A stretch of 64,000 nt of DNA from Patescibacteria group bacterium (GCA_019454415.1 JACFOI010000003.1:14361-78360), one strand, 5' to 3'. Shown: positions 8,078 through 43,511, counted from the first letter of the stretch. The notes: generated by a model not told the origin, from the sequence alone. Program-made: numbers and translations.

Positions 8078-10546
8078 GTGAGTACACCAGTCTCCAAACA
8101 ATCATCTGAGTCGAGCGAGAGACCAAATCTTGAAACTCGTTTATTGAATCCTTTCATCACTATGAAGAGCAAGAAGTGGCATCAGCTGTTCGCGGCCAAA
8201 CACCAGCCCAAAGTGAAAACCAAACAAAAATCTGACAAACCCAAGCGCCAATTACCCAAAGCACTGCGAATTATTTTATTCCCGATAATCAATCCATTTT
8301 TAAGATTTGGGTTACTTGCTTTACTCTTATGTGGAGTACTCGCCTTGCTGTATATGCTACGAGACCTTCCGTCTCCGACCCGCCTGACCGCCAGCGAAAA
8401 CTTCGCCGTCAGTACTCAAATCTTTGACCGAAAAGGACGCCTGCTCTATGAGATTTTTGCCGATGAAAATCGGATTCCGATTGAACTCGAAACACTTCCA
8501 CCCCATGTGTACCAAGCGACAATTGCGATTGAAGATAAAAACTTCTACAGTCACTGGGGCTTCGACATCATTGGTATCACCCGCGCAATCCGTAACACGC
8601 TGGAAGGAAAGCGGCTGGAGGGCGGCTCTACGATCACTCAGCAGTTGATCAAGACTGCGCTTTTGACCCGAGAACGCTCGATTCAACGTAAGATTAAAGA
8701 AGGTGTGCTGGCTGTCGTGACGGAACTGTTGTACTCAAAAGAGCAGATCTTGGAGATGTACCTTAATTACATTTCGTATGGTGGTACCTCGGTGGGCATC
8801 GAGTCAGCTGCACAGCGCTACTTTGATAAGCACGCTAAGGACTTGACGATCGCAGAGGCGGCACTTCTAGCCGGATTGCCGCAGTCGCCCAGTCAGTACT
8901 CACCGTTTGGTAGCTCACCTGAGTTGGCTAAACAACGCCAGCAAGAAGTTATCCGTCGCATGCAGGAAGACGGCTACATCACTGCCCAGCAAGCTGAACA
9001 GGCCAAGAATGAAGTCCTCAAGTTTGCGATCTCTAAAACCGATATTCAGGCCCCGCACTTTGTGTTCTATGTTCGTGACTTGCTGTATCAGAAGTACGGT
9101 GAAGAACGAGTTGAAAAAGGCGGGCTACGCGTCACTACTTCTTTGGATCTGGATCTTCAGAATGTAGCTCAAGCGTCTCTGTCGGCAGAGGTTGAATCTT
9201 TGCAGAGAGCTCAAGTCAGTAACGGTGCCAGTTTAATCATGAAACCCAACACCGGTGAGATCTTGGCAATGATCGGCTCCAAAGACTACTTCAATACCGC
9301 CGAAGATGGTCAGGTGAATGTTACGCTACGACCGCGGCAGCCAGGTTCATCGATTAAACCGATCATGTATGCGACTGCTTTCCAAGAGAAACTGCTTAAT
9401 CCTGGCTCGTACTTACTGGACATTCCTACCTGCTTTGAGGTCGTGAACCAAAAACCGTACTGTCCGAAAAACTACGACGGCAGCTTCCGCGGTCCGGTTA
9501 CCATCAGGCAAGCCCTTGGTAACTCATTGAACATTCCGGCGGTGAAGTCACTGCGGCTACTAGGCCTGGAGACCTTTATTAATCAGGCCACCAAGATGGG
9601 TATCACCAGTTGGAAAGACCCCTCTAACTACGGCTTGTCACTCACCCTTGGTGGTGGTGAAGTCCGGATGATTGATCTGGCCCAAGCATTTAGCGTCTTG
9701 GCTAATCAAGGCGTAAAAGTACCTGTGACTCCGATTCTGAAAGTGGAAGACTACAAAGGAAACGTGATTGAAGAAGTAAATCTTGATGAGCGGAAGAAAG
9801 ACCTGGCAGAAATGAGTGCCGATGAAGACGAGTTGGAAGTGGGAGATTTGGAACGCGTCATGAACCGCGCTCCGGCCTATCTGACCACCCATATTATGCA
9901 GGATAATAATGCCCGCGTCTCTGCCTTTGGACCCAACTCCAAGTTGGTTATCCCTGGCCAGATCGTCAGCGCCAAAACCGGAACGACGAACGACCTGAAA
10001 GATAACTGGACCGTCGGCTTCACTCCTGAGTTCTTAGTCATCACTTGGGTCGGCAATAATGACGGTTCGGCAATGAACCGCAATTTGGTTTCTGGCATCA
10101 CCGGTGCGGCACCGATCTTTAACGACATCATGTCTTACATCTTGCGGGATCAGCAGCCCATCATTCCCGAAAAGCCGGATGACGTCACCGCCGGGAATGT
10201 ATGTGTAACCGGCTTCCCTGCACAACCCGGTGAAAACTGCCCTCAGCAGCACCAAGAATTGTTCTGGCGGAAGTCTCAACCATCGAAAGCACAGTTTGTA
10301 ACCAAAGAAGTTTGGATCCATCCGGAGACTGGCCTACCGCTGCAAGCAGGTGAGTCCACCGACGGCCTAGTGTTGCAGACCAAGACAGTTCTGACTGATC
10401 CGTTCACCACCGACTACTGTCAGGACTGCGCGCGGCCAGTAGACGAACAAGGGAAGACGGTCTACGAACAGCACAACGTCGACGCGACTACCATCTACAG
10501 CAACGAAGACGTCCAAACGAATCAAGAGTCACAAACTGCCCAGTGA
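8078..10546 (+). CDS. class A penicillin-binding protein (PBP1A-type transglycosylase/transpeptidase)
   Basis: GT51 motifs EDKNFYSHWGFD, GGSTITQQL. Transpeptidase SSIKP, SLN, KTGT. GTG start. N-terminal Lys-rich cytoplasmic tail and TM. Confidence 0.9.
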   Translation: MSTPVSKQSSESSERPNLETRLLNPFITMKSKKWHQLFAAKHQPKVKTKQKSDKPKRQLPKALRIILFPIINPFLRFGLLALLLCGVLALLYMLRDLPSPTRLTASENFAVSTQIFDRKGRLLYEIFADENRIPIELETLPPHVYQATIAIEDKNFYSHWGFDIIGITRAIRNTLEGKRLEGGSTITQQLIKTALLTRERSIQRKIKEGVLAVVTELLYSKEQILEMYLNYISYGGTSVGIESAAQRYFDKHAKDLTIAEAALLAGLPQSPSQYSPFGSSPELAKQRQQEVIRRMQEDGYITAQQAEQAKNEVLKFAISKTDIQAPHFVFYVRDLLYQKYGEERVEKGGLRVTTSLDLDLQNVAQASLSAEVESLQRAQVSNGASLIMKPNTGEILAMIGSKDYFNTAEDGQVNVTLRPRQPGSSIKPIMYATAFQEKLLNPGSYLLDIPTCFEVVNQKPYCPKNYDGSFRGPVTIRQALGNSLNIPAVKSLRLLGLETFINQATKMGITSWKDPSNYGLSLTLGGGEVRMIDLAQAFSVLANQGVKVPVTPILKVEDYKGNVIEEVNLDERKKDLAEMSADEDELEVGDLERVMNRAPAYLTTHIMQDNNARVSAFGPNSKLVIPGQIVSAKTGTTNDLKDNWTVGFTPEFLVITWVGNNDGSAMNRNLVSGITGAAPIFNDIMSYILRDQQPIIPEKPDDVTAGNVCVTGFPAQPGENCPQQHQELFWRKSQPSKAQFVTKEVWIHPETGLPLQAGESTDGLVLQTKTVLTDPFTTDYCQDCARPVDEQGKTVYEQHNVDATTIYSNEDVQTNQESQTAQ

Positions 10547-10554
10547 GGGGAATC

Positions 10555-11790
10555 ATGAAGGTTTGGCTATTCCGTATCTTTGCGATAGTTCTGATGGCGT
10601 TTGCAGGCTGGGGTGGTTGGTATTGGTATACCCATATTCACAATGTTTTTTTGTTGAATCCGTTTGCCAACTCTTTCGATGAAACTCCACCGCTGTCCGG
10701 ATTAAAGTCCCCTGACTTTTTGGTCTATGGTTTTGCTCCTTACTGGAACCTAACCAAGACAGTTGTCCAACCTGAGCTGACCCACCTTGCCTACTTCTCG
10801 TTGGTGATTACGCCAGAGGGTGACCTAGACGGAATTTCCAATGAAGAAGCAGTTGACCCTGATGGTGATACGGGCAGTCGACGTTGGCGTTCTGAGCAGC
10901 TGAACACAGTGGTCAGTCAACTCCAGCCTCACCAAAAACTGACCGTGACTCTCACCCAGTTTGATAAAACCGGTATCGAAACTTTTCTGACCTCACCCTC
11001 TGCCCAAGCTCACTTTCAGGAAGCGCTCAGGAACTTTTTGAATACCACTACTCGCTCCGTGGCTGGTGTCAACATTGATATTGAGTATCCGGGAGAAGCG
11101 ACGGACGAGGTCCGGCAGGGTTACGTAACCCTGGTACGTAACACTCGTCAAACGTTGGATGAGTATGCGCAAAGAGCGCGAAAAGAGAAGTTAAATCTGT
11201 CGATCAGCGTCTATGCCAATGCTGCCACCCGAAAGCTGCTCTGGGATCTACCGGCCTTAATTCAAGATGTTGATCACGTGGTAGTGATGGCCTATGACTT
11301 TCATCGCCCGTCTTCACCAGTAGCCGGACCCGTGGCACCGTTGTTTGGCGCTAAACAGAACTGGGATAACGACGTAGTGCTGCATATGAAAGAGTTTTTG
11401 GAGTTAATTCCGGCCAGTAAAGTTCTGCTGGGGGTACCGTTTTACGGATATGAGTGGGAAACCACTACGGGTGATGCACGCTCACTGGTTTTTCCGGGAA
11501 CGGGGGCGACGGCAAGCTACAGTCGTGTGCGTCGATTGTTGACCAGTACCGAGTCTGCTGAAGTTGCAGATGGTCTGATCGTCCAAGGCTGGGACGAGGA
11601 TGCGCTATCACCCTATGTCATCTTCACCAAGGATGACCGACAGCACGTGATTTATTATGAAGATGCACGTTCACTAGGCTATAAGCTCCAGCTGGTAAAA
11701 GAGCTTCGATTGGGTGGAATCGCCATCTGGGCACTCGGATATGAAGATGGTTCGCGGGAACTCTGGGACGCGATTGCAAATGAACTCTAG
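10555..11790 (+). CDS. GH18-like (chitinase-like/YaaH-like) membrane-anchored glycoside hydrolase homolog
   Basis: N-terminal TM. GH18-like catalytic region GVNIDIEYP (DxDxE-like), MAYDFH, GYEWET. ATG 10555 preceded by GAGGGG SD. ORF-track GTG 10543 overlaps PBP stop. Confidence 0.55.
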   Translation: MKVWLFRIFAIVLMAFAGWGGWYWYTHIHNVFLLNPFANSFDETPPLSGLKSPDFLVYGFAPYWNLTKTVVQPELTHLAYFSLVITPEGDLDGISNEEAVDPDGDTGSRRWRSEQLNTVVSQLQPHQKLTVTLTQFDKTGIETFLTSPSAQAHFQEALRNFLNTTTRSVAGVNIDIEYPGEATDEVRQGYVTLVRNTRQTLDEYAQRARKEKLNLSISVYANAATRKLLWDLPALIQDVDHVVVMAYDFHRPSSPVAGPVAPLFGAKQNWDNDVVLHMKEFLELIPASKVLLGVPFYGYEWETTTGDARSLVFPGTGATASYSRVRRLLTSTESAEVADGLIVQGWDEDALSPYVIFTKDDRQHVIYYEDARSLGYKLQLVKELRLGGIAIWALGYEDGSRELWDAIANEL

Positions 11791-11882
11791 GAGCAGACTT
11801 GAGCCACGTATTGTTTAGTCAACCTTTTCTATAAGTCTTACAAATCTTATCAAAAACAGACAATTGAATACACTTCAGGCCG

Positions 11883-14375
11883 ATGCTAAGATCTGGCGAA
11901 ATGCCGAAGAAAAAGCGTCGTAGCCAGAAGAAAGTTCTCCAAGCTCCTCGCAAAAAGTCGCGCCTTCAAACTGCCAAAACACAACCCATAACCAAAGACA
12001 AGAAAAGCCGCGCTCACGCTAAAGCTGCAGCTCCGACCAAAGTAGCTGCTCGCAAATCCATCCGCAAAACAACCAGGAAAGTTACTTCCCTCAAAAAAAC
12101 TCGTTCTAGAAAACGCCATGATGTACAGGTCTTTCCGGAGCCGTTCGGACATAGATTCATCAGTAGCATACGGCAGTTTGGTGCTGGCTTTTTCCGGGAG
12201 TTGATCTACCCGTTTTACTACTTGTTCAGGTATCACTTTTTTGCCACGTTGCTTTCATTAGTGATGACAGCACTCATTCTAGGTGGAGCGTATTACACCT
12301 ACGACACTGCCTTTCGTGATTTGCCACAAGTCAGTCAGATTACGCAACGTAAACAACCACTGACCACCAAAATCCTCGATCGAAACGGAAAGGTCCTCTA
12401 CAACATCTACAAGGATCAAAACCGGACACTCATTCCTCTGGATAAAGTCCCACCTTCTATGAAGCTGGCGACAATCGCGATTGAAGATCGTGACTTTTAT
12501 TCACATCACGGCTTATCGATTCGTGGGATTGCCCGAGCTATTAAGGTTAATAGTGAGGGCAATCGCGTCCAGGGCGGGTCAACTATCACCCAGCAACTGG
12601 TGAAAATGACGCTGCTGACTCCGGAACGAACGTTTAAACGGAAAATCCGTGAAGCACTCTTGTCATTCCTGGTCGAACAAACCTACACCAAAGATGAGAT
12701 TCTAGAGATGTATTTGAATGAAGTCCCTTACGGTGGCTCCACCTACGGTGTCGAAGAGGCAGCTCAACGCTACTTTGGTAAGTCAGCCCGGCAGCTCAAC
12801 TTAGCAGAAAGTGCTTTCCTGGCTGGACTGCCGCAGTCACCTAGTTTGTACTCGCCGTTCGGTAGTTCACCCGAACTGGCCAAGCAGCGCCAACACGAAG
12901 TACTGCGTCGGATGGTGGAAGACGAGTACATCACTCAGGAGCAAGCAAGTGCAGCCGAACAAGCAGAGTTAGTATTCCGGCCGAACGTGACAGATATTCA
13001 GGCCCCGCACTTTGTGATGTATGTGAAGGATCTGTTGGCTCAGCAGTACGGAGAAGACCTAGTCAGCCAAGGTGGACTGGAAGTGACAACCACACTCGAC
13101 CTGGATCTGCAGAACGAAGCACAGGAGATTGTGAGCAAAGAGATGGAGTCTCTGGCTAAGCTCAAAATCAACAACGGGGCAGCACTGGTGACCAATCCCC
13201 ACACTGGTGAGATTCTAGCCATGGTCGGGAGCAAAGATTACTTTGATTTCGCCCATGACGGTCAAGTGAACGTGACGATGCGACCTCGGCAGCCAGGATC
13301 ATCCATTAAACCAATCACCTACTCCGTCGCGTTTGAGAACGGGATGTCACCGTCGACGATGGTGCTGGATGCACCCGTTTCCTTCCAGACACCCGGCTCA
13401 CCAGTGTACTCACCCAAGAACTACGATGGCCGTTTTCATGGTAACGTCACCCTCCGCGAGGCACTGGCCTCTTCCTATAACATCCCAGCAGTGAAAACCT
13501 TGGCCAGTATCGGCATCGATAACATGATCGACCAAGCTCAAGCCATGGGGATTACTACCTGGAAAGACCGCCAACGCTTTGGCCTTTCCTTGACCTTGGG
13601 TGGTGGAGACGTGCTGATGTCCGACATGGCAAAGGTCTACGGGACGTTTGCCAATGAAGGTGTCACCACTGATCTTTCACCGTTGCTGGAAGTTAAAACT
13701 GCTAAAGGGGACGTGCTCTATCACAACTTTTGTGCCCTAGATGGCCATGACTGTCAGGCAGTCAGAACTATTTCCCGAAAGACTGCTTATCAAATCACCG
13801 ATATCCTCAGTGACAACGTGGCACGAACACCAGCATTCGGACCCCGCTCCGTACTCGATATTCCTAACCAGCAGGTAGCAGTCAAAACCGGTACCACCAA
13901 TAACTTGCGGGACAACTGGACGATTGGCTACACCCAAGACCGCGTGGTGGCCGTCTGGGTCGGCAATAACGACAACAGTCCCATGAGCTACGTTGCATCA
14001 GGGATCACTGGTGCTTCTCCCATTTGGAATAAAATCATGCGCCTCACTCTTGATGATCAGAATCCGCATCAATTTCCACTGCCGGAGGGTTTAGTGAAGG
14101 TGAAGATCTGTGTGACCACGCGCACTCTCCCGTGTGCTGGTTGCCCGATCGTACGGGAGGAGCTGTTTGAAGTGGGGACTGAACCCCAGGCCGCATGTAA
14201 TCCCGGCCAGTTTGCATCTCCGCCACTTCAACCTGCGCCTACCCGGATGCCCAACGTTCTGCCACAGATCAATCGCGTTCCCAACCCCACCCCCAAACCC
14301 CAACAGACGCTACGTGCTACCCCCAAGCCCCAAACGCCACAGCGACCTGCGGTGCAGGCAGTGCCACTTCGCTAA
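11883..14375 (+). CDS. class A penicillin-binding protein paralog with Lys-rich N-terminus and Pro-rich C-terminal tail
   Basis: EDRDFYSHHGLS, GGSTITQQL, SSIKP, KTGT. N-terminal roughly 80 aa highly basic (KKKRRSQKK...). C-terminal roughly 55 aa P/Q/T-rich low complexity. Confidence 0.9.
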   Translation: MLRSGEMPKKKRRSQKKVLQAPRKKSRLQTAKTQPITKDKKSRAHAKAAAPTKVAARKSIRKTTRKVTSLKKTRSRKRHDVQVFPEPFGHRFISSIRQFGAGFFRELIYPFYYLFRYHFFATLLSLVMTALILGGAYYTYDTAFRDLPQVSQITQRKQPLTTKILDRNGKVLYNIYKDQNRTLIPLDKVPPSMKLATIAIEDRDFYSHHGLSIRGIARAIKVNSEGNRVQGGSTITQQLVKMTLLTPERTFKRKIREALLSFLVEQTYTKDEILEMYLNEVPYGGSTYGVEEAAQRYFGKSARQLNLAESAFLAGLPQSPSLYSPFGSSPELAKQRQHEVLRRMVEDEYITQEQASAAEQAELVFRPNVTDIQAPHFVMYVKDLLAQQYGEDLVSQGGLEVTTTLDLDLQNEAQEIVSKEMESLAKLKINNGAALVTNPHTGEILAMVGSKDYFDFAHDGQVNVTMRPRQPGSSIKPITYSVAFENGMSPSTMVLDAPVSFQTPGSPVYSPKNYDGRFHGNVTLREALASSYNIPAVKTLASIGIDNMIDQAQAMGITTWKDRQRFGLSLTLGGGDVLMSDMAKVYGTFANEGVTTDLSPLLEVKTAKGDVLYHNFCALDGHDCQAVRTISRKTAYQITDILSDNVARTPAFGPRSVLDIPNQQVAVKTGTTNNLRDNWTIGYTQDRVVAVWVGNNDNSPMSYVASGITGASPIWNKIMRLTLDDQNPHQFPLPEGLVKVKICVTTRTLPCAGCPIVREELFEVGTEPQAACNPGQFASPPLQPAPTRMPNVLPQINRVPNPTPKPQQTLRATPKPQTPQRPAVQAVPLR

Positions 14376-22018: not shown

Positions 22019-22468
22019 TTAACCTGCACAGTTGCCGTTCACTTTTTCGAGAGGCGCACTGACGCAAAATCGAGTCTGAGGATTTGCCCCATCTGCTCCG
22101 TAATAATTCTGTGACATTGAGCGAATCTGGTATACATAAGTGGTGTTATTAATTGGATCAACTGGTGTCATCCCAGAGGGGAAATAATTTCCTATAGCTA
22201 CCGTTGCCGAAGACAGGTTCCCAGCAGCATAGGGATATTCACCGTTTGTTGTATAGTACTGCTCCAGTGCTTTACTAGCTGCATCCACATCAGCTCTTCT
22301 TTTGGCATCTCGAGCGTTTTTCTGCGTGTTAGAAAACGCCACAATTCCAGCTGCCATGACTATTCCCATAATGGCTACTACTACCATCAGTTCAATCAGT
22401 GTAAATCCTAAAAGACGAAATGCGACGAGCGTACGCGACGAGGTGTGTTGCTCAACAGTCTTATCATA
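22019..22468 (-). CDS. type IV pilin-like protein (prepilin), start codon undetermined / possible frameshift
   Basis: Class III signal RLLG|FTLIELMVVVAIMGIV is encoded in frame upstream of the ORF-track ATG (22387). Coordinates are stop-to-stop. No ATG/GTG/TTG in frame upstream. An ATG-initiated short ORF MIRLLSNTPRRVRSSHFVF* sits in the +1 frame and would fuse if the A4 run at 22410-22413 were A5. Confidence 0.6.
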   Translation of the reverse strand, partial: YDKTVEQHTSSRTLVAFRLLGFTLIELMVVVAIMGIVMAAGIVAFSNTQKNARDAKRRADVDAASKALEQYYTTNGEYPYAAGNLSSATVAIGNYFPSGMTPVDPINNTTYVYQIRSMSQNYYGADGANPQTRFCVSAPLEKVNGNCAG

Positions 22469-22614
22469 TCATTCTTTAGATTGCTCTGTCAACCTTTTTT
22501 ATTAATAGACTCAAACGTTACCAAGTCAGAGAACTCTCTCTTTTTCAGTATAGCAAAAAGCGAAACGCATAGTTCCGCATCTACCGATTCAAAATTACGT
22601 TAAGATATAGCTGT

Positions 22615-24306
22615 ATGGTTTTCCGGCTTCCCAAAATCCTGAGTACTTATACCGAGTGGCTTGAGAGACAGCAGACCAGCATCCTTTCGGCTGCGGTCAT
22701 TATTACGGTGGCGAACATCGCCTCGGCAGTTTCCGGATTGGTCCGGCAGCGCCTGCTCATTTCTCACTTTTTTGACACGCTCTCTTCCCGACAAGCTTAC
22801 GAGGCCTTCCTGGTCGCTTTCCAGATTCCGGACATGATGTTCCAATTGATTGTCTTGGGTGCCGTTTCAGCTGCCTTCATTCCTATCCTGACCCTCTACA
22901 AAGATAACCACGAAGAAGAGCTACGTTACATGAACTCAATGATGAACAGTGTGCTCTTGATCTTTATTGTGGTAGGGATTGTGGTCTTTATCTTTGCTGA
23001 GCCACTGACCAAGTACCGGACCGGTGAGGCATTCACTCCTGAACAGCTAACGATTGCCGTTCATATGACCAGAATCATGGTCTTTGCCCAGTTTTTCTTT
23101 GCGATCTCTAACTTCTTCACCGGCATGCTCCAGTCATACAAACGCTTCATTGTTCCGGCCGTTGCCCCGATTTTGTACAACATCGGGATCTTGGCTGGTG
23201 CCTTTCTGTTATCGGCCCAGTTTGGGATCTACGCAGCCGGTATTGGCGTGGTGATCGGAGCTGCCCTCCACATGCTGGTCCAGCTTCCCCTTGCCTTCAA
23301 GTTGGGCTTTCGCTTCAAACCGATCATCGCTGTGCGTGATCCCGGAGTAGTTCGCACCTACAAGCTCACTCCTGCCCGTACAGCCAGCTTGGCGATCAAT
23401 CAGGTCCAGCAGTTATCTGATGGATTTTTTACGACGACGATTGGCAACCTCAGCTACTTGGTGATGAACTTGGCATCAGCGTTGATCACTATGCCGATTC
23501 GTTTTTTTGGCGTCCCGATCAGTCAGGCAGCCTTGCCGTTCTTATCCGAAGAGGCAACCGACAAGGATCTCTCCCGTTTCAAGGACCTTGTCCTTAAGTC
23601 GATCCATCAAATCTCATTTCTTGCCTATCCGGCTGCCGTGCTTTTACTGATCCTCCGCGTCCCCATTGTTCGTATCGTCTACGGAACACGCAACTTCCCT
23701 TGGGAAACGACCCTGATGACTGGGCGGGTGGTGGCCATTATTACGCTTTCAATTGCGGCTCAGGCTATTGTGCAGCTGCTGATCCGAGCCTTCTATGCAC
23801 TGAAAGATACCAAGACACCACTCTATATCACCATCATTACCGTCTTTTTCTATGTAGCCGGCTCGGCATTCTCAGTCTTTGTCCTGAAAGCTGGAGTTAT
23901 TGGCCTGGCGGTGGTACTAACTATCACTAACATCTTAGAAATGATCTTTTTCTTGTTCTATCTTGATAAAAAGGTCCGTGGTTTTGTGCGCAAGGAGTTC
24001 TGGATTCCACAGCTGAAGATGATCGTGACCAGCTTTTTGATGGCCGTGTTTCTGTATCTGCCGTTCCGCATTCTGGATGAGTTGGTCTTCGATACCAGCC
24101 GGACGATGGAGCTGATTCTGTTAACACTCAGCACGGGAACAATCGGTATGTTGGTGTATGTCTACTTTGCGCTGCTCCTCGACATCCGTGAGCTCTATAT
24201 CTTTACCAACTTGGTCAATAAGTTTGGCAACTGGCAAAAAACACTCTCCAAGAGCAGCGAAGTATTGGTGGAGTCACCCAATCTGACCGACGACGTTCAG
24301 CCGTAA
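22615..24306 (+). CDS. murJ: lipid II flippase MurJ (MviN)
   Basis: N-terminal SxxxxSxxTxxSRxLG-like region. AFQIPDMMFQL, GAVSAAFIPIL. Roughly 14 predicted TMs. 563 aa. Confidence 0.85.
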   Translation: MVFRLPKILSTYTEWLERQQTSILSAAVIITVANIASAVSGLVRQRLLISHFFDTLSSRQAYEAFLVAFQIPDMMFQLIVLGAVSAAFIPILTLYKDNHEEELRYMNSMMNSVLLIFIVVGIVVFIFAEPLTKYRTGEAFTPEQLTIAVHMTRIMVFAQFFFAISNFFTGMLQSYKRFIVPAVAPILYNIGILAGAFLLSAQFGIYAAGIGVVIGAALHMLVQLPLAFKLGFRFKPIIAVRDPGVVRTYKLTPARTASLAINQVQQLSDGFFTTTIGNLSYLVMNLASALITMPIRFFGVPISQAALPFLSEEATDKDLSRFKDLVLKSIHQISFLAYPAAVLLLILRVPIVRIVYGTRNFPWETTLMTGRVVAIITLSIAAQAIVQLLIRAFYALKDTKTPLYITIITVFFYVAGSAFSVFVLKAGVIGLAVVLTITNILEMIFFLFYLDKKVRGFVRKEFWIPQLKMIVTSFLMAVFLYLPFRILDELVFDTSRTMELILLTLSTGTIGMLVYVYFALLLDIRELYIFTNLVNKFGNWQKTLSKSSEVLVESPNLTDDVQP

Positions 24307-24370
24307 TTTTCTGCCTGACAACAATCCTATTCTTGGTCTCTAGTTGAACTGTGTGTACAATGGAAATCGA

Positions 24371-24940
24371 ATGAAGAAGCCTGCCAATATCAAGGTTAAT
24401 TTGCTGCCGAAGGATCCTTTCCTCAGTACACCTGTAGGGAAGCTGTTGCAGTGGGCCTTGAGCATTGGTCGGTATCTGGTGGTCTTTACTGAATTGGTAG
24501 TGATCATCAGCTTTGCCAGCCGTTTCACGATTGACCGGCAAATCACCGACTTGAACGTCGCCATTCTCCAGAAAGAAACAATTATCGATTCCTATGGCGA
24601 CCTCGAGCAGAACGTCCGCAACGTCCAGAAAAAGATCGAGACTTATCGACAGGTCGAACAACAGGAGAATGTAACTGATATTTTCCCGGTATTAACTGAA
24701 GTTACTCCTCCTGACGTGGTGCTGACAGATCTTCAGATGCGTCCAGGCCGCGTCACTTTGACCGGGATTACTCCTTCAAACGTTTCATTAGGAATTCTGA
24801 TCAATAACTTACAAGTATCCGGACGGTTTAGTGATATCTCGGTTGAACGTATTGGAACTGCCAAAGATACGAATAGCGGATTAGGCTTCAAGATCGAAGC
24901 AAACGTCAGGAAAGTAGCAACCACAAATGCCAACCAGTAG
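24371..24940 (+). CDS. pilN: type IV pilus assembly protein PilN-like
   Basis: N-terminal IKVNLLPKD (the INLLP signature), then a single TM, then a coiled-coil/ferredoxin-like periplasmic part. Confidence 0.65.
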   Translation: MKKPANIKVNLLPKDPFLSTPVGKLLQWALSIGRYLVVFTELVVIISFASRFTIDRQITDLNVAILQKETIIDSYGDLEQNVRNVQKKIETYRQVEQQENVTDIFPVLTEVTPPDVVLTDLQMRPGRVTLTGITPSNVSLGILINNLQVSGRFSDISVERIGTAKDTNSGLGFKIEANVRKVATTNANQ

Positions 24941-25595
24941 AAGTCGACAACTGACGACCATGCTCCTCCAGTTCTATGACCGGCCAATTGCCAAGGTTTC
25001 GCTGGAGCTGTTCTTCACCATCAGTGCGGTGATTATCTTTGCCGTGTTTGCGATCCGCCCGACTCTGCAAACCATGGGGACATTGATCAAAGAACTCGAA
25101 GACAAACGTGCCCTCAATCAGCGGCTCGCCCAGAAAGTCGCTGCGCTCTCTACTGCACAAACCCAGTATGAAGCAGTCAGAGAGAGGATCTCTCTGTTGG
25201 ATGAAGCCATTCCGCCGACCCCCCAGTTTGAGAAAGCCCTACTGATCATCGAAAAGTTGGCAAGTGAAAGCCAGCTGACCATCATTAACCTGCAAGCTAA
25301 GGAAGTCCCCAAAGAGCCTGATCCTGCAGAGGACGTTCCTTTTGAGCAAAAAGAACGAGCGACGCGATCGATCGTTCTGACTGTGACCGGTGACTATCCG
25401 ACCATTCGTCAGCTGATTGAAAATATTCAAGCTCAGCGGCGGGTATTGATCGTTGATACTGTGGTCTTCTCAGTCGTGGAACAACGGGGCAAGAAAGTTC
25501 TGCAAGCTGCCATCACTGTCAACGTACCGTTCTTCGCACCGGACTTAACTAAGCCGGCAGATCCGAGCCCGACACCTGATGACATAACACCATAA
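24927..25595 (+). CDS. PilO-like pilus assembly protein (TM + coiled coil)
   Basis: Cytoplasmic stub, a single TM (FFTISAVIIFAVFAI), a long coiled coil, and overlap with pilN end. Topology and size match PilO. Confidence 0.45.
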   Translation: MPTSRSRQLTTMLLQFYDRPIAKVSLELFFTISAVIIFAVFAIRPTLQTMGTLIKELEDKRALNQRLAQKVAALSTAQTQYEAVRERISLLDEAIPPTPQFEKALLIIEKLASESQLTIINLQAKEVPKEPDPAEDVPFEQKERATRSIVLTVTGDYPTIRQLIENIQAQRRVLIVDTVVFSVVEQRGKKVLQAAITVNVPFFAPDLTKPADPSPTPDDITP

Positions 25596-25597
25596 CT

Positions 25598-26104
25598 ATG
25601 AAATCACAGCTTTCGCAACTCCAGAAAAAACAGACACTCCTGAGGATTTTTATCTTTACGTTGGTGACGATCATCGTTTGGGTGGGTGTCACTCTGCTGC
25701 GCACTCAACAAGAAACTGGAATTCGGCCAGAGCTGAACAAAAAGGCAGAGGCACTCAACCCGAATGTGAGTGCCGAGACTCTAGATCAAATTGAACAGAA
25801 ACGAGCCTTCACTGATGCAGATTTGTCTGACTTTCCAATCTACTCGATCGTGACCCTCAAAACCGGTGAGCAGCAGTTGGTCGTGTTCTCAGCTTCTGAC
25901 AAAGCCCGTCGTGAAGTGACGCTGGAAAGCGGCACTCAGCCGCCAACCTCTTCCGTCCCACCGACTACTCTGGAAACGACTGATCAAGGTCCAACAGGCC
26001 CGGTCGAAAGCACTGTGACAGTCGAGAACTCTTCAAGCGTGGCTCCAGGGGCTCAACCGGTTTCTCCACCAACGGAGTCAGTGCCTCCAGCAACCGTACC
26101 GTAA
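25598..26104 (+). CDS. small anchored protein with Ser/Thr/Pro-rich C-terminus (possible PilP-like)
   Basis: N-terminal TM. C-terminal PPTSSVPPTTLETTDQGPTGP... low complexity. Confidence 0.35.
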   Translation: MKSQLSQLQKKQTLLRIFIFTLVTIIVWVGVTLLRTQQETGIRPELNKKAEALNPNVSAETLDQIEQKRAFTDADLSDFPIYSIVTLKTGEQQLVVFSASDKARREVTLESGTQPPTSSVPPTTLETTDQGPTGPVESTVTVENSSSVAPGAQPVSPPTESVPPATVP

Positions 26105-26193
26105 GCTCCCAAATACCGTCATAGTTCGATCCGTTTTCTTCGTCTCTTCTTCGCGTTGTTTTACCAGACCAATTTATCTACAGTAGTAAGGAA

Positions 26194-27750
26194 ATGAAAT
26201 CTGCGTTTGCCCAACGTCAAATTCCGACATTGCTTGGCTTAGGTGTTTTGATTGCCGCCCTAGTGGGTGGTATTGCGTTGATCGGAACTGGGGGAGGTGT
26301 TTTCGCTCCCCGGGCAACTCCTCAGACAACTCCCAAAAACTTAAAGATGACGAACATCAAGGACACCAGCTTTACGGTCTCGTTCATGACCGATGAGGCT
26401 ACCAGTGGCTTTGTGAAGTACGGTAAATCGCCGGATGCTCTCCAAACTCAGGCCAGTGACGATCGAGACCAACTGTCCGGGAGTGTCGGCCAATATAACT
26501 CACACTACATTACCCTCCGTGACCTTGATCCAGATACCCAGTATTACTTCACCGTCGGGACAGCATCAGTGCCTCGTTTTGATAGCAACGGGACACCATT
26601 TAGCCTTAAGACTGCCAGTCGGGGCGGAAATCCGACTGCGGCTAAGACAGCCTACGGTACCGTCAATGCCGCGAGCGGAGCACCGGCAGACGGAGCAATC
26701 GTGTACATGAATATCGACGGTGTCAGTGAGTTATCGGCGCTCGTCAAAGGATCCGGCAGTTGGGCTATTCCACTTTCCAACGCTCGAACTACTGATCTTT
26801 CCGGATACGCTAACTTACAACAAACTGACCTCGTCAGCATCTTTGTTCAAGGTACTCAACTCAGCGAGACGGCCACTGCCCAAGTGACGGTAGCCGAAAC
26901 GCAGCCTGTTCCCACACTAGTACTGGGAGTAGGTTCCGGGGCAACGATCGATACAGGCTTGCAAGCTGATGCCTCTCAGGCTTTCAGCGCTGAGACAGAG
27001 ACTACTGCTGACTCTCTGACAGCCCTTAGTCAAACGACTGAGTCAAGCGACTCTTCCGAAGCCTTTGTGAGTCCATCTGTCGAACCATCTGTGTCTCCAC
27101 TCTCTCAAGAGAACTCTGAAGCTACTGCTTCCCCGACTGTCGTCCCAAGTCCCAGTACTCAAACCGTCGATACCGTTGATCTTTCTATCCCTGAACAACA
27201 AACCGTTGATACTACCACTCCGACCATCACTGGAAAGGTTACGCCGAATACTGTCGTCTATGTAGAGATCCACTCCGAGACAGAGATTACTACTCAAGTC
27301 ACCACTGATGAAAACGGTGATTTTGTGCTGCCACTCGCCAGCACTCAAGGGTTAGAGCCGGGAGAGCATACTGTTACCTTGACGTATACTGACCCGAACA
27401 CAGGGGAACAAAAGCAAGTCACTCGAACTTTTTTTGTTTCAGGCACTCTTGCACAGGCCAATCCCAGCCCCTCACCATTTGGGACGTCCAATCCGTTTAC
27501 GATTCCGTCCCCCTCTCCGTCCCCTTCGCCGGAGCTCTCACCTTCTCCGACAGCAACAGAGAGCGCAACCGCTTCTGCTTCTCCACGAGTGGTGATGCCA
27601 GCAACTACGAGTGCTATTCCTCGATCTGGCTCAACTGAGATTACTATTGGCTTAATCCTGGCCGGATTATTTATGATTGGGTTAGGTGTGTGGAGTTATC
27701 GCTACAACATGACTCAAGCACTCATTGATTCCGAAGAAGAGTCCGCCTAA
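26194..27750 (+). CDS. cell-surface protein: signal/TM, FN3-like and Ig-like domains, Ser/Pro-rich stalk, C-terminal TM anchor
   Basis: FTVSFMTDEATSGFVKYGKSP...DTQYYFTV (FN3/PAP-N-like). Ig-like GEHTVTLTYTDPNTGEQ. SPSPSPSPSPELSPSPTATESATASASP stalk. C-terminal AIPRSGSTEITIGLILAGLFMIGLGVWSYRY. Confidence 0.6.
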   Translation: MKSAFAQRQIPTLLGLGVLIAALVGGIALIGTGGGVFAPRATPQTTPKNLKMTNIKDTSFTVSFMTDEATSGFVKYGKSPDALQTQASDDRDQLSGSVGQYNSHYITLRDLDPDTQYYFTVGTASVPRFDSNGTPFSLKTASRGGNPTAAKTAYGTVNAASGAPADGAIVYMNIDGVSELSALVKGSGSWAIPLSNARTTDLSGYANLQQTDLVSIFVQGTQLSETATAQVTVAETQPVPTLVLGVGSGATIDTGLQADASQAFSAETETTADSLTALSQTTESSDSSEAFVSPSVEPSVSPLSQENSEATASPTVVPSPSTQTVDTVDLSIPEQQTVDTTTPTITGKVTPNTVVYVEIHSETEITTQVTTDENGDFVLPLASTQGLEPGEHTVTLTYTDPNTGEQKQVTRTFFVSGTLAQANPSPSPFGTSNPFTIPSPSPSPSPELSPSPTATESATASASPRVVMPATTSAIPRSGSTEITIGLILAGLFMIGLGVWSYRYNMTQALIDSEEESA

Positions 27751-27762
27751 CATACAGAAACT

Positions 27763-28485
27763 GTGTTGAGTTCTTCATACCACTTTAGCTGGCAAAAACG
27801 AACGCTTGACGTCTGTTTAGCGCTGACCTTTTTGATCTTTTTATTCCCGTTGTTTTGTGGCGTGGTACTGCTCGTACTCGCCACTTCCGGTACCCCCATT
27901 CTGTTTTGGCAGGAGCGGCTGGGACATAACAAGAAGCCATTCAAAATGCTGAAGTTTCGTACTATGCGCCCAGGAGCCGAACAGATGAAGGAGAAGTTAA
28001 TTCCTCATAATGAAGCTCCCTGGCCGATGTTCAAGATGAAGAACGATCCGCGTTTTACTCAAGTGGGCAGGTTTCTTTCCCGGAGTGGTCTAGATGAGCT
28101 TCCCCAATTTTTCCAAATCTTGACTGGTGAGATGAGCTTTGTCGGTCCGCGACCACTGCCAGTACCTGAGGCCAAAAGCTTACCCCGTTCGTGGGCATTT
28201 CGTTATGAGGTCAAACCCGGTATTTTATCCGAGTGGGCAATTGCGCCGGATCGGTATGCGTCACTAAAACGCTGGCGCGAACTGGAGCTGGAAACTGTTA
28301 AAAAAGGCTCACTCTTCAATGATCTGCGGATCATTGGCCGCGGGTTTTTCTTTATGGTGTACGCCAACAAAACGCTACTCACCGATAAACCGAAGGTACG
28401 AACTCGCCGTCCTCGCCCAAGTGTAGCGACGCAAAACTTGCCGATCGGCAGTCGAAAACGAGCGCCGCTTGGGTCGTTTGCGTAA
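27763..28485 (+). CDS. initiating polyprenyl-phosphate phosphoglycosyltransferase (Bac_transf; WbaP/PglC/WcaJ C-terminal-domain type)
   Basis: MLKFRTM, PRFTQVGRFLSRSGLDELPQFFQILTGEMSFVGPRP. The 3' 111 nt overlap the convergent GT4 gene. Confidence 0.85.
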   Translation: MLSSSYHFSWQKRTLDVCLALTFLIFLFPLFCGVVLLVLATSGTPILFWQERLGHNKKPFKMLKFRTMRPGAEQMKEKLIPHNEAPWPMFKMKNDPRFTQVGRFLSRSGLDELPQFFQILTGEMSFVGPRPLPVPEAKSLPRSWAFRYEVKPGILSEWAIAPDRYASLKRWRELELETVKKGSLFNDLRIIGRGFFFMVYANKTLLTDKPKVRTRRPRPSVATQNLPIGSRKRAPLGSFA

Positions 28486-30584: not shown

Positions 30585-31591
30585 AATGCCGGAATCGTTG
30601 TATTGTGATACGTACGGAAGTTATAAGGTGCCAACAGGGTATCAAATCTTACGTCGTTGTACCCGCGTAAGGTTATCTTTCTGTATTCCAGTAGTCGTGG
30701 TAGCTGCCATACCGTCTCTCCCCAGATTCTCGGATAGGTCAGGATTCCGCAACTCCACGAACCATAGATCAACACCCAAGCTTGCACCAGTAAGATATTC
30801 AGGACATTTCGAAGTATCTCCCTACCGGGCCAGCAGCAAATCAGTACCCATAGAATATTTCTGTAGGTTTGATAGAGAGCGAAAGTATTGCGCCGGCCGC
30901 CGGAACTGACTGAGCCGTGGTGATACGCAATAAGTTGCTCTGCTTTTTTGATCTCTCCACTACTCATCAGGATCCTGATACTCAGATCAACATCTTCGAG
31001 GTAGTAGTAGTAGATCGGATTAAAAAAGTAGCCATACCTCTCAATGAGCTTTTCCACAAACTCCCACCGTAGCAGCATACAGCCGGCAGTTGCCAGTGTC
31101 GTCGGAATCTTCCGATCACGACAGTTTTTGGCATATCCTGACCGGAAATACTCAACGCCAAAGACGTCAATCTGGGTTGGATCTGCTGCTTCCAGCATCA
31201 CTGGCGCATAGACTGCTGGTTGTCGCTTGGAACGACTCTTCTCTTCTTCTAGTGCAAGCTGCTCAAAAAAGTTCTCTGCTATCCATGCATCGTCATTGAG
31301 CAAAAGCAGCCAACCTGAGTGATCCATACGTACTTTGGGCAACAGAAAACTCACTGCAGTGTTATTGAGATCTGCAAAGCCGGAATTGGGAGGAGCTTGG
31401 ATAAACCGAACATGTTTAAACTCGTTTTTGAATGTTCTTGAAGGCTGTGAGGTAGAGACGACACAGATCGTGATCTGCCAATGGGAGCGTTTCTTTTGTT
31501 GCTCTATGCTCGCGATTGCCTGCCGAAGGAAAGGTCGCTGAGCCATTTTCAATGTAGAAGGAATAATGACTGTAACGTGGAGATCAGTCAT
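30581..31591 (-). CDS. GT2-family glycosyltransferase
   Basis: VTVIIPS... N-terminal GT-A region, DD-like acidic motifs. Confidence 0.65.
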   Translation of the reverse strand: MTDLHVTVIIPSTLKMAQRPFLRQAIASIEQQKKRSHWQITICVVSTSQPSRTFKNEFKHVRFIQAPPNSGFADLNNTAVSFLLPKVRMDHSGWLLLLNDDAWIAENFFEQLALEEEKSRSKRQPAVYAPVMLEAADPTQIDVFGVEYFRSGYAKNCRDRKIPTTLATAGCMLLRWEFVEKLIERYGYFFNPIYYYYLEDVDLSIRILMSSGEIKKAEQLIAYHHGSVSSGGRRNTFALYQTYRNILWVLICCWPGREILRNVLNILLVQAWVLIYGSWSCGILTYPRIWGETVWQLPRLLEYRKITLRGYNDVRFDTLLAPYNFRTYHNTTIPAL

Positions 31592-31603
31592 AATAGGTAT
31601 CGT

Positions 31604-33832
31604 ATGTTTACTGCTGTTGCAGAGAGAAAACAGCTTTTCTTTTTTACGCTTTTTTTCTCTGCGTGTTATTTCTTGCTATTGTTTTTGACAGAGGGGTTTT
31701 ACTCTCTATGGATTACACCAGCCCTCTTGCTATTGTACGGTGTTACTGCTTGGTACCTTCTCTTCAGAGAAAAGACAACAGTTCGTCAGCTTGATACTAG
31801 AGTCGCGATCGGCGGAGCAGTCGTGCTATTGGTACTACTGGCTCTTACTCCGTGGAGCCTCTCAATGCCAGCTAGCATCTCGCGGTGGACAACTTTAGCC
31901 CTGGGAGGTATCACTTTCCTCTTCTTTTTTACCACGCCTATTCTACAAAAACTTTCTCTCCGAACTCTTTTTACTAGCATGATTGTGCTCCATGCCCTCT
32001 TCGTGCTATTGGCACTCTTTGTGTTTGTTATTCCGGGATTGGGCGACTTCCTGCCCAGTGAGAATCTATTGAGCTTCACTGTCGGACACAATCATTCCTA
32101 CATTTTGTATCTGATCTCCCTTCCCCTGTGTTTATACTTCAGTACGCAGAGTAAAAGAAGTTGGGTGTGGCTTCTCTTAAGCGGTGTGTTCATCTTTGGA
32201 ATCATCCTCTCTTTCAGTCGGGTAGGACTCTTTTTACTCTTGATAGAGTTGATTTACTTTGTCGTCGTTCACCTTCACGGACAGCGCCTCGCACTTCTGA
32301 AACATCTGAGAACTCTGGCACTGTTATGCAGTATCTTGGTGATGATATATGGCGGATTGTTGTTCTTGCTCTCATTTTTTCCGCAACTGAGCTATGGCAC
32401 AAACTGTATTGTTCCTTTCTGGAAAGCCCAGTTCTGTAAAAACTTTGGAGCAGAGAGTCGTCCTCACTACTGGCAACAAGCACTGCAGGGTATTAAAACA
32501 AGTCCAATCTTGGGTACTGGAGGTGGAACGTTTAGCATCCTCTCTTTCCGCTACCGTCAGCATCAGGATGAGTACTCAGCCTACCCGCACAACGAGTATC
32601 TGCAGCTGATCGTGGAGTATGGCGTTGCAGGGTGGCTGATCGTGGCAGCGATAGCGATCAGCCTGCGCTTCATGTGGCAAAGGTGGCACCAAGTCTCCGA
32701 TCTGGCACGCCTGCTTATTTTTCTGAGTACGGTAACCGCGTTTGACTCGCTTTTCAACTTTAACTGGAGTTTTGTAGGCATCTTTGTGTTGGAGTCTCTT
32801 CTGTGGGCCGTGACGCTCAAAACAATCCACCTGGAGTTAGCTTCCAAAACTAAGAAAAGTAGCAGTCCACGCCTCATTTTTTTGGCTCTTCTGAGTGTAG
32901 GAGTGCCTCTCTGTTGGTTGTCTGCACGGTTTCTGTCAGCTGAGCTCCTGCTCAATCAACGCGACGAAGAGTATCTGCGACGTTTTCCTTATATTTCAGG
33001 GCGGGCCGAGCGAGCGTACTTTGACTCACAGACTTCTTCCGGCACTAAGGAGATGATTGAGGATCTGTATCGGAACAACGAAACCCTTGCTTGGCTGGCT
33101 GCGAGCAGGGCGGTAAGTCCACATACACAGCGGGATCTTTACCAGCGGTACTTAGAGCTCAATCCGATGAATCATGAGGCTCGGGTCCGTTTGATGATCG
33201 CTGCTACTCAAACCAATGATCCAAAGATTGTACTTACTCAACTGAACTGGCTATTGGATTTTTATTCTGTGACCGAAAAGCATACGATCAGGGACATTGA
33301 GCCCCAGTATTTGGAACGATTGATCAACTATGCGAACTCACTCAGTGCCGAAAATTCTGCTACGGCAGTGGACGTTACGCTGCTGGCATATCAATTTGAA
33401 CCTTGGCGGATAAATGAAGTGCAAACGATTTTTCTTCTTCAGCCACAAAAGTTTCCTCAGCAAGATGTTGCCAAGTTGCTCGATTCACTTGCTCCCTACC
33501 GACTCCAGTTTTATCTTAGTTCTCTCAATCCGTGGACCTGGGAGAAGATGCTTACTGCAGGCACCCATGAACGCTGGGCGGATATGAATCTCTATCTCAA
33601 ACTTATCTTGGTCTATACAGATTGGGATCCGCATGTTGTCTGGGCTACTATTTCTCGACTAATCACCAGTAAGTTAAAGGATCCTGAGTTCTCCGATTCT
33701 GCCCCAAAAAAGAAGGCTTTCTTAGATGCCTGGAGAAACAGTCTTGAAACCCTGGAAAAATTTGGTACTGTTGGCGATAAGCCTCTCGACACTAGTGGAT
33801 GGTCAGAGCAGATTGAGTCGTTTGCCCATTAA
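31604..33832 (+). CDS. Wzy_C (O-antigen ligase/PglL-like) polytopic membrane protein fused to C-terminal TPR-like domain
   Basis: Roughly 12 TMs. Signature loop YPHNEYLQLIVEYGVAGW. C-terminal roughly 300 aa soluble helical repeats (TPR-like). Confidence 0.75.
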   Translation: MFTAVAERKQLFFFTLFFSACYFLLLFLTEGFYSLWITPALLLLYGVTAWYLLFREKTTVRQLDTRVAIGGAVVLLVLLALTPWSLSMPASISRWTTLALGGITFLFFFTTPILQKLSLRTLFTSMIVLHALFVLLALFVFVIPGLGDFLPSENLLSFTVGHNHSYILYLISLPLCLYFSTQSKRSWVWLLLSGVFIFGIILSFSRVGLFLLLIELIYFVVVHLHGQRLALLKHLRTLALLCSILVMIYGGLLFLLSFFPQLSYGTNCIVPFWKAQFCKNFGAESRPHYWQQALQGIKTSPILGTGGGTFSILSFRYRQHQDEYSAYPHNEYLQLIVEYGVAGWLIVAAIAISLRFMWQRWHQVSDLARLLIFLSTVTAFDSLFNFNWSFVGIFVLESLLWAVTLKTIHLELASKTKKSSSPRLIFLALLSVGVPLCWLSARFLSAELLLNQRDEEYLRRFPYISGRAERAYFDSQTSSGTKEMIEDLYRNNETLAWLAASRAVSPHTQRDLYQRYLELNPMNHEARVRLMIAATQTNDPKIVLTQLNWLLDFYSVTEKHTIRDIEPQYLERLINYANSLSAENSATAVDVTLLAYQFEPWRINEVQTIFLLQPQKFPQQDVAKLLDSLAPYRLQFYLSSLNPWTWEKMLTAGTHERWADMNLYLKLILVYTDWDPHVVWATISRLITSKLKDPEFSDSAPKKKAFLDAWRNSLETLEKFGTVGDKPLDTSGWSEQIESFAH

Positions 33833-42698: not shown

Positions 42699-43511
42699 TT
42701 ACAAACCTTCAATATCATCAATTGAAGGATAAATGTTGTAACGCTTTTGGTTAATAGGGATCTGGGAGCCAATATGAACTCTATAGTTATCGAACATAAC
42801 AACTTCGTTCTCATTAACCACACGTACTGTCAGATCGGCCCAGATCACGACATCCTTGTATATAGGATGTTTCCTGATGTGTAAGTTCCCGGAGCTATCC
42901 TGAGTAATTTGCGTTGCTGGACTCACCTCTACCTTAGTAATTTTGACTAGCTGCTTGCCCAGTGAGTTAGTAACTGTATCTCCCACGTGGATCTCCTTTG
43001 CCAAGGTGGGAGCAATACTCCCCAAAAAGGTTTTGACATGAATCACCTTCTCCGTTGCATTTACTTGAGCAGTCCCGGGGACATCAGTCACGATTCCGTC
43101 AAACGTAACATCATGAAGATTGAACCTCATGGGAGTTCCATACATTAAGTTTTTCCCGCGGGCAGAGTACAGTTTAGTCCGGGTGTCGTAGGTGGCCCGG
43201 AGCCGGATATCCAAATAAACAACTTTGTTCTCCGGAGTAATTGAGTAGCTTTCTACATTTACAATCTCGGCGATTGTCCGTCCTACCACGTCCCTTTCTA
43301 GATCACCGACATGGAATCGCCATGAGTAATCATTTCTGGGGGTGTCATGTGCAGTCAGTACTTCCTGATTCGTCACTTTAAAACGAATAGTAATGTAGGT
43401 GGACTTCCGATAGAAGAAAAAGAAGAAACCGACCAGCACTACTACTGCTGCACTGAAGATGAGTGTGTCTACCCAGTGTAGCTTGCGTAACTTTTTCAGA
43501 ATTTTTTTCAT
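42699..43511 (-). CDS. N-terminally anchored uncharacterized protein (paralog of 52371-53252)
   Basis: Basic N-terminus + TM (AAVVVLVGFFFFFYRK) + beta-rich domain. Clear paralogy to 52371-53252. Confidence 0.45.
   Translation of the reverse strand: MKKILKKLRKLHWVDTLIFSAAVVVLVGFFFFFYRKSTYITIRFKVTNQEVLTAHDTPRNDYSWRFHVGDLERDVVGRTIAEIVNVESYSITPENKVVYLDIRLRATYDTRTKLYSARGKNLMYGTPMRFNLHDVTFDGIVTDVPGTAQVNATEKVIHVKTFLGSIAPTLAKEIHVGDTVTNSLGKQLVKITKVEVSPATQITQDSSGNLHIRKHPIYKDVVIWADLTVRVVNENEVVMFDNYRVHIGSQIPINQKRYNIYPSIDDIEGL

Follow-up and report, generated by a model that had tools for sequence, protein, structure and literature searches.

Closest described systems and the locus

The closest described relatives of the genes reported here encode the PilM-PilN-PilO-PilP(-PilQ) subcomplex of type IVa pili in Myxococcus, Pseudomonas, and Thermus. 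Crystal structures from Thermus and Pseudomonas show that an INLLP-type peptide of PilN binds PilM (PilM and PilM-PilN-peptide entries, PDB 2ych, 5eox, and 5eou). Among bacteria of the candidate phyla radiation (CPR), Nanosynbacter lyticus TM7x carries pilM1-pilN1-pilO1 together with motor genes, and the complete genome of Microgenomates bacterium Ch65 has pilins, PilD, PilB, PilT, PilC, and PilM at one locus, in a listing without PilN and PilO (PMC7143001). Here we describe a pilN-pilO locus at positions 22615 to 27750 of a 64-kb stretch of DNA (the window, meaning the whole stretch analyzed) from a Patescibacteria group bacterium (GCA_019454415.1, JACFOI010000003.1:14361-78360), which is a piece of a Microgenomates (Patescibacteria/CPR) genome. 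The gene in front of pilN is murJ, and the genes behind pilO encode two proteins of 168 and 518 amino acids (aa), called p168 and p518 here. PilN-PilO-p168-p518 is a four-gene module fixed in the Microgenomates lineage. We lean toward an account in which pilM is encoded elsewhere, PilN/PilO, p168, and p518 make up the membrane-to-wall part of a type IV pilus machine, and p518 is anchored by a variant sortase-type signal. The features of the locus are as follows.

22615-24306 (+): murJ, lipid II flippase, 563 aa; Pfam MurJ, E = 2.8e-75; TIGR01695 (murJ_mviN equivalog), 269.2 bits versus a cutoff of 235.55
24356-24361 (+): TACAAT, a -10-like box 9 nucleotides (nt) before the pilN ATG
24371-24940 (+): pilN, PilN-like bitopic protein, 189 aa; PF05137, 42.9 bits versus a cutoff of 22.8, E = 5e-11
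24927-25595 (+): pilO, PilO-like bitopic protein, 222 aa (211 aa if translation begins at the next ATG); PF04350, 26.7 bits versus a cutoff of 22
25598-26104 (+): p168, small bitopic protein, 168 aa; no Pfam or NCBIfam family match
26194-27750 (+): p518, whole gene, 518 aa; Pfam Pur_ac_phosph_N/fn3 at residues 46-126 and Big_13 at 335-410

The locus resembles the type IVa subcomplex in its PilN and PilO domains, in their bitopic topology, in having pilN and pilO adjacent or overlapping, in the INLLP-type PilN peptide, and in having genes for two more envelope proteins directly behind pilO. It differs in that pilM is not adjacent, no PilP or secretin is present, p168 and p518 belong to no pilus family, linkage to pilB, pilC, pilT, or pilins is lacking, and the organism has no outer membrane. 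With the pilus loci of CPR and Gram-positive bacteria (TM7x and Ch65 among them) it shares the absence of an outer membrane and of PilQ, as well as PilN/PilO homologs that barely exceed the family thresholds. Whereas pilM, pilN, and pilO lie together with motor genes in TM7x, pilN and pilO are here split off beside murJ and, unlike in the other CPR and Gram-positive loci, joined to the lineage-specific p168 and p518.

Gene order in related genomes

We compared 80 p518 loci, one genome per species (Pacebacteria, Woesebacteria, and Microgenomates), and mapped the window proteins onto them. Where informative, the labels of these loci read Patescibacteria, Microgenomates, Pacebacteria, or Woesebacteria; many read "uncultured Pseudomonadales" and three named other phyla, which we took as mislabels. 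MurJ(+), PilN, PilO, and p518 occurred in the same order and orientation in 66 of the 68 loci that had enough upstream DNA, and tblastn located p168 in the PilO-p518 interval in 57 of the 80. The genes from pilN to p518 share one strand and are separated by short gaps. One of the two exceptions (L009) has an inverted murJ and an intact PilN-PilO-p168-p518 module, and the other (L078) has a p518 homolog without PilN/PilO alongside. The latter belongs to a divergent lineage, in which the p518 homolog (ending in VPKAG) directly adjoins an inverted murJ without intervening PilN, PilO, or p168 (L078:7980-11413); a gene for a conjugation-type ATPase lies close by (L078:17033-18490). Conservation of gene order stops at the 3' end of p518. 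Downstream content varies, with a Bac_transf gene directly after p518 in only 20 of 66 loci and other genes, often encoding very large secreted proteins, in the remainder.

A first-pass annotation, made from the sequence alone, had placed murJ immediately 5' of pilN at the start of a pilus block. The adjacency is real and deeply conserved: MurJ passes the trusted cutoff of its equivalog model (TIGR01695), and the PilN-domain protein follows directly. The idea that the block begins with murJ fared less well. In 61 of 63 loci, MurJ is preceded by LepA(-) and S20(-), and in most of about 70 species the start codon of pilN has a TACAAT-like box 8 to 12 nt ahead of it. For the window, the mechanical open reading frame (ORF) of pilN runs from a TTG at 24344 to 24940 (198 aa); the ATG at 24371 is the most likely start, and the resulting length of 189 aa is also the call in assembly L001. 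The box suggests a separate, conserved pilN transcript that would be leaderless or nearly so. Since pilN has its own conserved -10 box, murJ is probably a separate transcription unit and a neighbor instead of the first gene, and a murJ-pilN operon is further weakened because lepA and rpsT are equally syntenic. The position of murJ may most simply be read as frozen, inherited synteny, like that of lepA and rpsT, and not as a sign of one operon. Another element, CTGCC(C), is found repeatedly close to the pilN start in the MurJ-PilN spacers (L003-L082).

PilN, PilO, and the location of pilM

PilN has a short cytoplasmic N terminus with an INLLP-type peptide, followed by one transmembrane helix. 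In the window, the N terminus reads MKKPANIKVNLLPKDPF and carries KVNLLPKDPF, in agreement with the INLLP motif of the first-pass annotation; we take VNLLPKDPF to be the counterpart of the PilM-binding peptide. The pattern [I/V]-N-L-[L/V]-P-K-D-P-F was conserved in all PilN orthologs examined (74 were extracted, of which 69 start cleanly). The PilO-like gene overlaps pilN by 14 nt, and its product also gave weak T2SSM_b and GspM matches.

The claim that pilM does not stand in front of pilN held for far more than this one position. When all ORFs of at least 150 aa across the 64 kb were searched against Pfam, there was no PilM_2 match anywhere, and no PilB/PilT ATPase (T2SSE), PilC (T2SSF), prepilin peptidase, or sortase was found. 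Likewise, tblastn queries with PilM and PilT of P. aeruginosa and SrtA of S. aureus (the PilM query has one mismatch to PDB 5eox) gave 0 matches in the window and 82 loci. A profile built from three PilM sequences (Pseudomonas, Myxococcus, and Thermus) detected no PilM-like ORF among 1170 ORFs from 85 loci (best E = 0.45), and a PilM alignment searched against viral contigs found no match. The DNA visible to us extended about 5 kb past the window start, where an exact-protein look-up revealed no pilus genes. The genes after pilO encode no PilP or Secretin domain, p168 having no family and p518 only FN3/Ig domains.

With the order fixed and pilM missing from every related locus, its absence from this site is an ancestral state of the lineage and not a local loss. 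The operon is not damaged; a site without pilM is the normal state for this lineage. The first-pass annotation had left open whether PilM was absent or encoded elsewhere, and "elsewhere" is favored because the PilM-binding peptide is kept in PilN and its orthologs and because PilM lies at a separate locus in Ch65. The PilM, PilN, PilO, PilB, PilT, and PilC families are also widespread in CPR (PMC6744442; PMC12206443). To judge from these sequence comparisons, the system is probably split, with pilM at a motor/pilin locus and pilN-pilO at murJ.

Architecture of p168 and p518

The two Ser/Thr/Pro-rich anchored proteins predicted downstream of pilO were both recognized, as p168 and the FN3/Ig protein p518. 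p168 has a short cytoplasmic N terminus and a transmembrane helix with an invariant Trp, followed by a conserved ectodomain of about 50 aa (LAxPLxPxI...ExK..Y...EL..FPIY) and a variable tail that is Ser/Thr/Pro-rich or acidic (54% Ser/Thr/Pro in the C-terminal third of the window protein). p518 had 485 homologs that aligned over the full length at 43 to 78% identity and, where named, were called hypothetical; each fetched locus had one copy, one duplicate assembly aside. An AlphaFold model made from 40 sequences had a mean pLDDT (predicted local distance difference test score) of 75, with values above 90 in the folded parts. It comprises a transmembrane helix (residues 10-31), an FN3 domain (46-125), a second beta-sandwich (~150-245), a disordered spacer (248-323), an Ig-like domain (327-415), a disordered stalk (420-480), and a helix (481-515). 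On the DNA, these parts are placed as follows.

26221-26286 (+): N-terminal transmembrane helix (residues 10-31); IPT..G..L conserved, with an invariant F-x-P-R-A next
26329-26928 (+): FN3 (46-125) and second beta-sandwich (~150-245), the most conserved part
26935-27162 (+): disordered spacer 1; 59% Ser/Thr/Pro/Ala
27172-27438 (+): Ig-like domain (Big_13), from Pfam and AlphaFold
27451-27609 (+): Ser/Pro-rich stalk; 74% Ser/Thr/Pro/Ala
27610-27648 (+): juxtamembrane motif S-A-I-P-R-S-G-S-T-E-I-T; family consensus [AS]-T-x-S-[AG]-[IVLM]-P-x-S-G-S-[VT]-x-T-T
27649-27747 (+): C-terminal transmembrane helix and acidic tail YNMTQALIDSEEESA; Gly491, Gly498, and Trp500 conserved

The N-terminal domain pair has many invariant residues (e.g., SDDRDQLSG and SGSWAIPLSNAR), a degree of conservation that looks unusual for a plain adhesin. 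Foldseek comparison with the PDB returned almost only tandem FN3/Ig adhesin-like proteins. An enzymatic role was rejected, the matches to purple acid phytase covering just the FN3-like N-terminal domain, as was a prepilin-type signal, there being no G/FTLIE motif; nor was a canonical signal-peptidase site seen on reading the sequence after the N-terminal helix. In several species, giant ORFs of about 3300 aa with a "transmembrane helix + QDxRQQA" motif lie directly 3' of p518; examples of such giant or secreted-protein ORFs are L018:12321-16364, L047:10065-19910, L058:9126-19100, and L076:9935-19825.

The C-terminal module of p518

The C-terminal motif segment of p518 includes the peptide ATTSAIPRSGSTEIT, with IPRSG as its pentapeptide, and a hydrophobic, Gly-rich helix follows. 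The protein then runs 14 residues beyond ...SYRY (NMTQALIDSEEESA), to end in ...GVWSYRYNMTQALIDSEEESA; the tail is therefore acidic, and the basic tail described in the first pass was a misreading of a sequence that continues. Among 197 distinct family members, 157 fit the motif [A/S]-T-x-S-[A/G]-[I/V/L/M]-P-[V/K/R]-S-G-S-[V/T]-x-T-T. When 1.84 billion representative proteins were searched with a 44-position profile of the module, only 96 matched, mostly p518 orthologs or fragments. About a dozen of these were full-length proteins unlike p518 in the body (P0175, P0190, P0196, P0197, P0199, P0202, P0205, and P0207, among others) that end in xPxSGSxxTT, a Gly-rich helix, and a basic tail, and their domains differ (Cys-rich repeats, cohesin, and Big_1). 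An earlier conclusion from a local profile, that the module was specific to the p518 family, was overturned by this library-wide search. The carriers (P0190, P0196, P0197, and P0207 being examples) share the N-terminal "transmembrane helix + QDxRQQA" with Microgenomates proteins in the fetched loci; in Microgenomates secreted proteins this x-Q-D-x-R-Q-Q-A motif is sometimes more than 100 residues from the N terminus. Genes neighboring p518 in the fetched loci encode proteins ending in ELPRTG-STETT, LPQTG, LPVTG, LPETG, LPRSG, LPVAG, or LPKAG plus a helix, the LPQTG protein scoring 15.6 bits on TIGR01167 against a cutoff of 15.9.

Because the module occurs on unrelated proteins and has LPRTG and LPQTG neighbors, the p518 version can be placed at one end of an LPx[T/S/A]G continuum in the lineage. 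We therefore consider it probable, from these sequence patterns, that the p518 C terminus is a variant sortase-type signal. The first-pass description of a sorting-signal-like end that is neither LPXTG nor PEP was right about the tripartite layout, which is shared with the dozen or so unrelated proteins, but the motif is best read as, in effect, an LPXTG-type variant, [IVLM]PxSG. Like the sortase LPXTG signal (TIGR01167), it combines Pro-x-[Ser/Thr]-Gly, a hydrophobic helix, and a short tail at the C terminus of a secreted multidomain protein, is common to unrelated surface proteins of the lineage, and occurs in a group in which sortase is common. Unlike that signal, it has Ser for Thr and I/V/M for Leu, an extended motif (T-x-S-[AG]-x-P-x-S-G-S-x-x-T-T), conserved helix residues, an acidic tail, and no Pro in a fifth of orthologs, and it fails the LPXTG model.

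The strongest competing explanation, to which we give somewhat less than an even chance, is that the p518 C terminus is a permanent transmembrane anchor. Both ends of the protein would then sit in the membrane with the ectodomain looping out, and the conserved motif and helix might pack against the helices of PilN, PilO, and p168. Several observations speak for such an anchor and so weigh against a cleaved sorting signal. The tail YNMTQALIDSEEESA has a net charge of -4, and tails in the family (mean of 11 residues) are net negative in most members. Of the 197 members, 40 (~20%) do not have the Pro-containing motif, nearly all having TYKSG, LMEAG, or similar, and SGS-V-x-T (SGSVxTT) and the helix are retained. 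Conservation of Gly491, Gly498, and Trp500 would be unexpected if the segment were removed by cleavage, and AlphaFold gives one long helix for residues 481-515. The C terminus had no match to the LPXTG_anchor model (TIGR01167) even at E of ≤10, and no sortase was found in the window (Pfam) or related flanks (tblastn and a TLxTC-type regular expression). Searches of p518 and its last 56 residues against NCBIfam likewise gave no PEP-CTERM, PGF-CTERM, GlyGly-CTERM, or VPDSG-CTERM match. Against a permanent anchor, the same module is found with basic tails on the dozen or so unrelated proteins, and it grades into LPRTG-STETT signals within the lineage, as a shared sorting signal would. Sortase is, moreover, reported as near-ubiquitous in Microgenomates (PMC6744442) and is encoded in Ch65 (PMC7143001).

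A Rce1-like/CPBP-family intramembrane protease gene is present in the window (6047-6850, minus strand), and nothing ties it to p518.

Alternative explanations for the module

If the module is part of a type IV pilus machine, PilN and PilO would form their usual membrane heterodimer, and PilM, made elsewhere with PilB/T/C/D and pilins, would dock on the N-terminal peptide of PilN. p168 and p518 would be lineage-specific partners extending the PilN/PilO platform toward the wall, in cells that have a wall and no outer membrane. p518 would fill the operon slot of the diderm PilP/PilQ, with its inner end held by the N-terminal helix and its outer end by sortase-type linkage to peptidoglycan or, failing that, by the C-terminal helix in the membrane. 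This account has several points to contend with. The top PDB match of the PilN profile, M. xanthus PilN, is weak (E = 0.38), as is the best match of PilO, M. xanthus PilO (3jc8_Oa; E = 0.014). In the 80 loci there was no PilT/PilB-like ATPase within 10 kb and no pilin motif, and the PilM profile search described above was negative; with no motor, pilin, or pilM gene within 10 kb in about 80 species, PilN/PilO homology and the PilM-binding motif are all that link the module to pili. Synteny by itself is weak evidence, since the unrelated lepA, rpsT, and murJ are just as fixed (61/63 loci).

We consider unlikely an explanation in which p518 would be a surface protein or adhesin of the common type, physically independent of PilN/PilO, and would owe its position to gene order frozen in a small, rarely rearranged genome. 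The structure of p518 is like that of generic tandem FN3/Ig adhesins, the homolog in L078 has no PilN/PilO alongside, and other surface-protein genes come after p518 in many loci. However, the order is kept in 66 of 68 loci on the same strand with short gaps while downstream content varies, the N-terminal domains (40 to 70% identity, with many invariant residues) show unusual conservation for an adhesin, and p518 is single copy in the fetched loci.

Less probable still is a role outside pili, in which the PilN/PilO-like pair would join p168 and p518 in an envelope complex coupled to peptidoglycan synthesis through MurJ and lipid II. In variants of this idea, the N-terminal peptide of PilN would dock on FtsA, whose structure is related to that of PilM, or p518 would be attached to lipid II where flipping takes place. 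It would fit murJ lying directly 5' in 66 of 68 species, the lack of any pilus gene within 10 kb, two class A penicillin-binding protein genes in the same window, and the established role of lipid II as the sortase acceptor. It is at odds with the conserved promoter of pilN, with the intact module beside an inverted murJ in L009, with the equal synteny of lepA and rpsT without a functional link, and with the above-threshold Pfam matches of PilN and PilO and the retained PilM-binding motif. We regard as improbable, to nearly the same degree, a broader version in which the module is a pilus-independent Microgenomates envelope machine whose PilN-type peptide would recruit an actin-like ATPase (PilM/FtsA) to the lipid II flipping site, p518 being loaded onto lipid II or peptidoglycan via a new PxSGSxxTT-type signal with its own enzyme. 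Finally, it is very unlikely that pilM is truly absent and the pilus machine runs without the actin-like PilM: the 64-kb window, the ~5 kb before it, and ~1.4 Mb of flanking DNA from related loci showed no PilM, but only about 6% of a ~1-Mb genome is visible, the PilM-binding peptide of PilN is strongly conserved, and PilM is reported for a complete Microgenomates genome and widely in CPR.

Neighboring genes

Apart from the module, the window encodes LepA, S20, SmpB, NrdR, two class A penicillin-binding proteins, DUF5667, and a large glycosyltransferase island, a gene content typical of Patescibacteria. Features flanking the module are as follows.

8078-14375 (+): two class A penicillin-binding protein genes flanking a GH18 chitinase-like gene, ~8 kb upstream of murJ
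22019-~22450 (-): type IV prepilin-like gene; perfect class III signal ...FRLLG/FTLIELMVVVAIMG (cleavage at the slash), T2SSG domain
22463-22492 (-): sigma-70-like promoter facing the pilin gene; TTGACA, 18-nt spacer, TG-TATGAT; 11/12 matches (consensus scan only)
27763-28485 (+): Bac_transf phosphoglycosyl transferase, 240 aa; Pfam E = 5e-50; 12 nt 3' of p518
31481-33832 (+), 43508-45064 (-), 47307-49616 (-), and 50834-52387 (+): Wzy_C genes (at least four in the window), in a ~35-kb glycosyltransferase island (surrounding 28-63 kb)

The prepilin gene, which was not in the first-pass annotation, lies directly upstream of murJ, between rpsT and murJ. Since the 80 related loci lack any pilin motif, it is an insertion peculiar to the lineage of the window. 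No in-frame ATG, GTG, or TTG was present from the upstream stop to the cleavage site; the only CTG/TTG start is in a different frame (...LLSNTPRRVRSSHFVF, then a stop). An identical sequence is found in an independent Joint Genome Institute (JGI) assembly (L086), and several Logan contigs break within the pilin N terminus. The missing start might reflect a frameshift or pseudogene, noncanonical initiation, or faulty assembly where a pilin N terminus is repeated.

Metagenome contigs sharing the pilin N-terminal DNA were also tried as a route to the main pilus locus. The PilM-like ORFs recovered in this way were GspL-type PilM-PilN fusions: L098, L100, L103, L104, and L117 encode PilM_2 + GspL_C + PilN proteins of ~490 to 530 aa on contigs that share 23 nt of pilin N-terminal DNA. 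L104 was rejected as a pilus locus, being a type II secretion locus of an unrelated non-CPR bacterium; its 23-nt match indicates that exact pilin/pseudopilin N-terminal DNA is shared across distant phyla. Related pilins in L101 and L116 are orphans.

The Wzy_C family includes the protein O-oligosaccharyltransferases PglL and TfpO, and an organism of this type should lack lipopolysaccharide. By family membership, the Wzy_C products could be glycopolymer polymerases or protein O-oligosaccharyltransferases, and the Ser/Thr/Pro spacers of p518 are plausible, if circumstantial, candidate O-glycosylation sites. As with the Wzy_C-dependent O-glycosylation of Neisseria (PglL) and Pseudomonas (TfpO/PilO), low-complexity Ser/Ala/Pro-rich spacers occur in envelope proteins, and the Wzy_C genes, a phosphoglycosyl transferase gene, and many glycosyltransferase genes lie near p518. 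In contrast to those systems, the glycan island is not conserved beside p518 in relatives, which have only Bac_transf there, in 20 of 66 species. CPBP/Rce1-family enzymes, one of which the window encodes, are candidates for C-terminal processing in other systems.

Implications for Microgenomates pili and surface proteins

MurJ, PilN, PilO, FN3/Ig surface proteins, and LPXTG-like signals are all known kinds. The lineage-wide split of pilN/pilO from pilM, the fixed coupling to p168 and p518, and the PxSGSxxTT variant signal appear to be new, as we found no description of them in the searchable literature. These results refine current views and overturn none. The separation of pilM from pilN/pilO explains why operon-based annotation of Microgenomates reports pilus loci that look incomplete. 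CPR bacteria need type IV pili for host attachment and DNA uptake, and their pilus machine has to be braced in a walled cell without an outer membrane. p168 and p518, whose genes are fixed behind pilN/pilO throughout a class, are tangible candidates for its missing outer part. The PxSGSxxTT-plus-helix module marks out a group of surface proteins in Microgenomates and offers a testable motif for the uncharacterized sortases of CPR.

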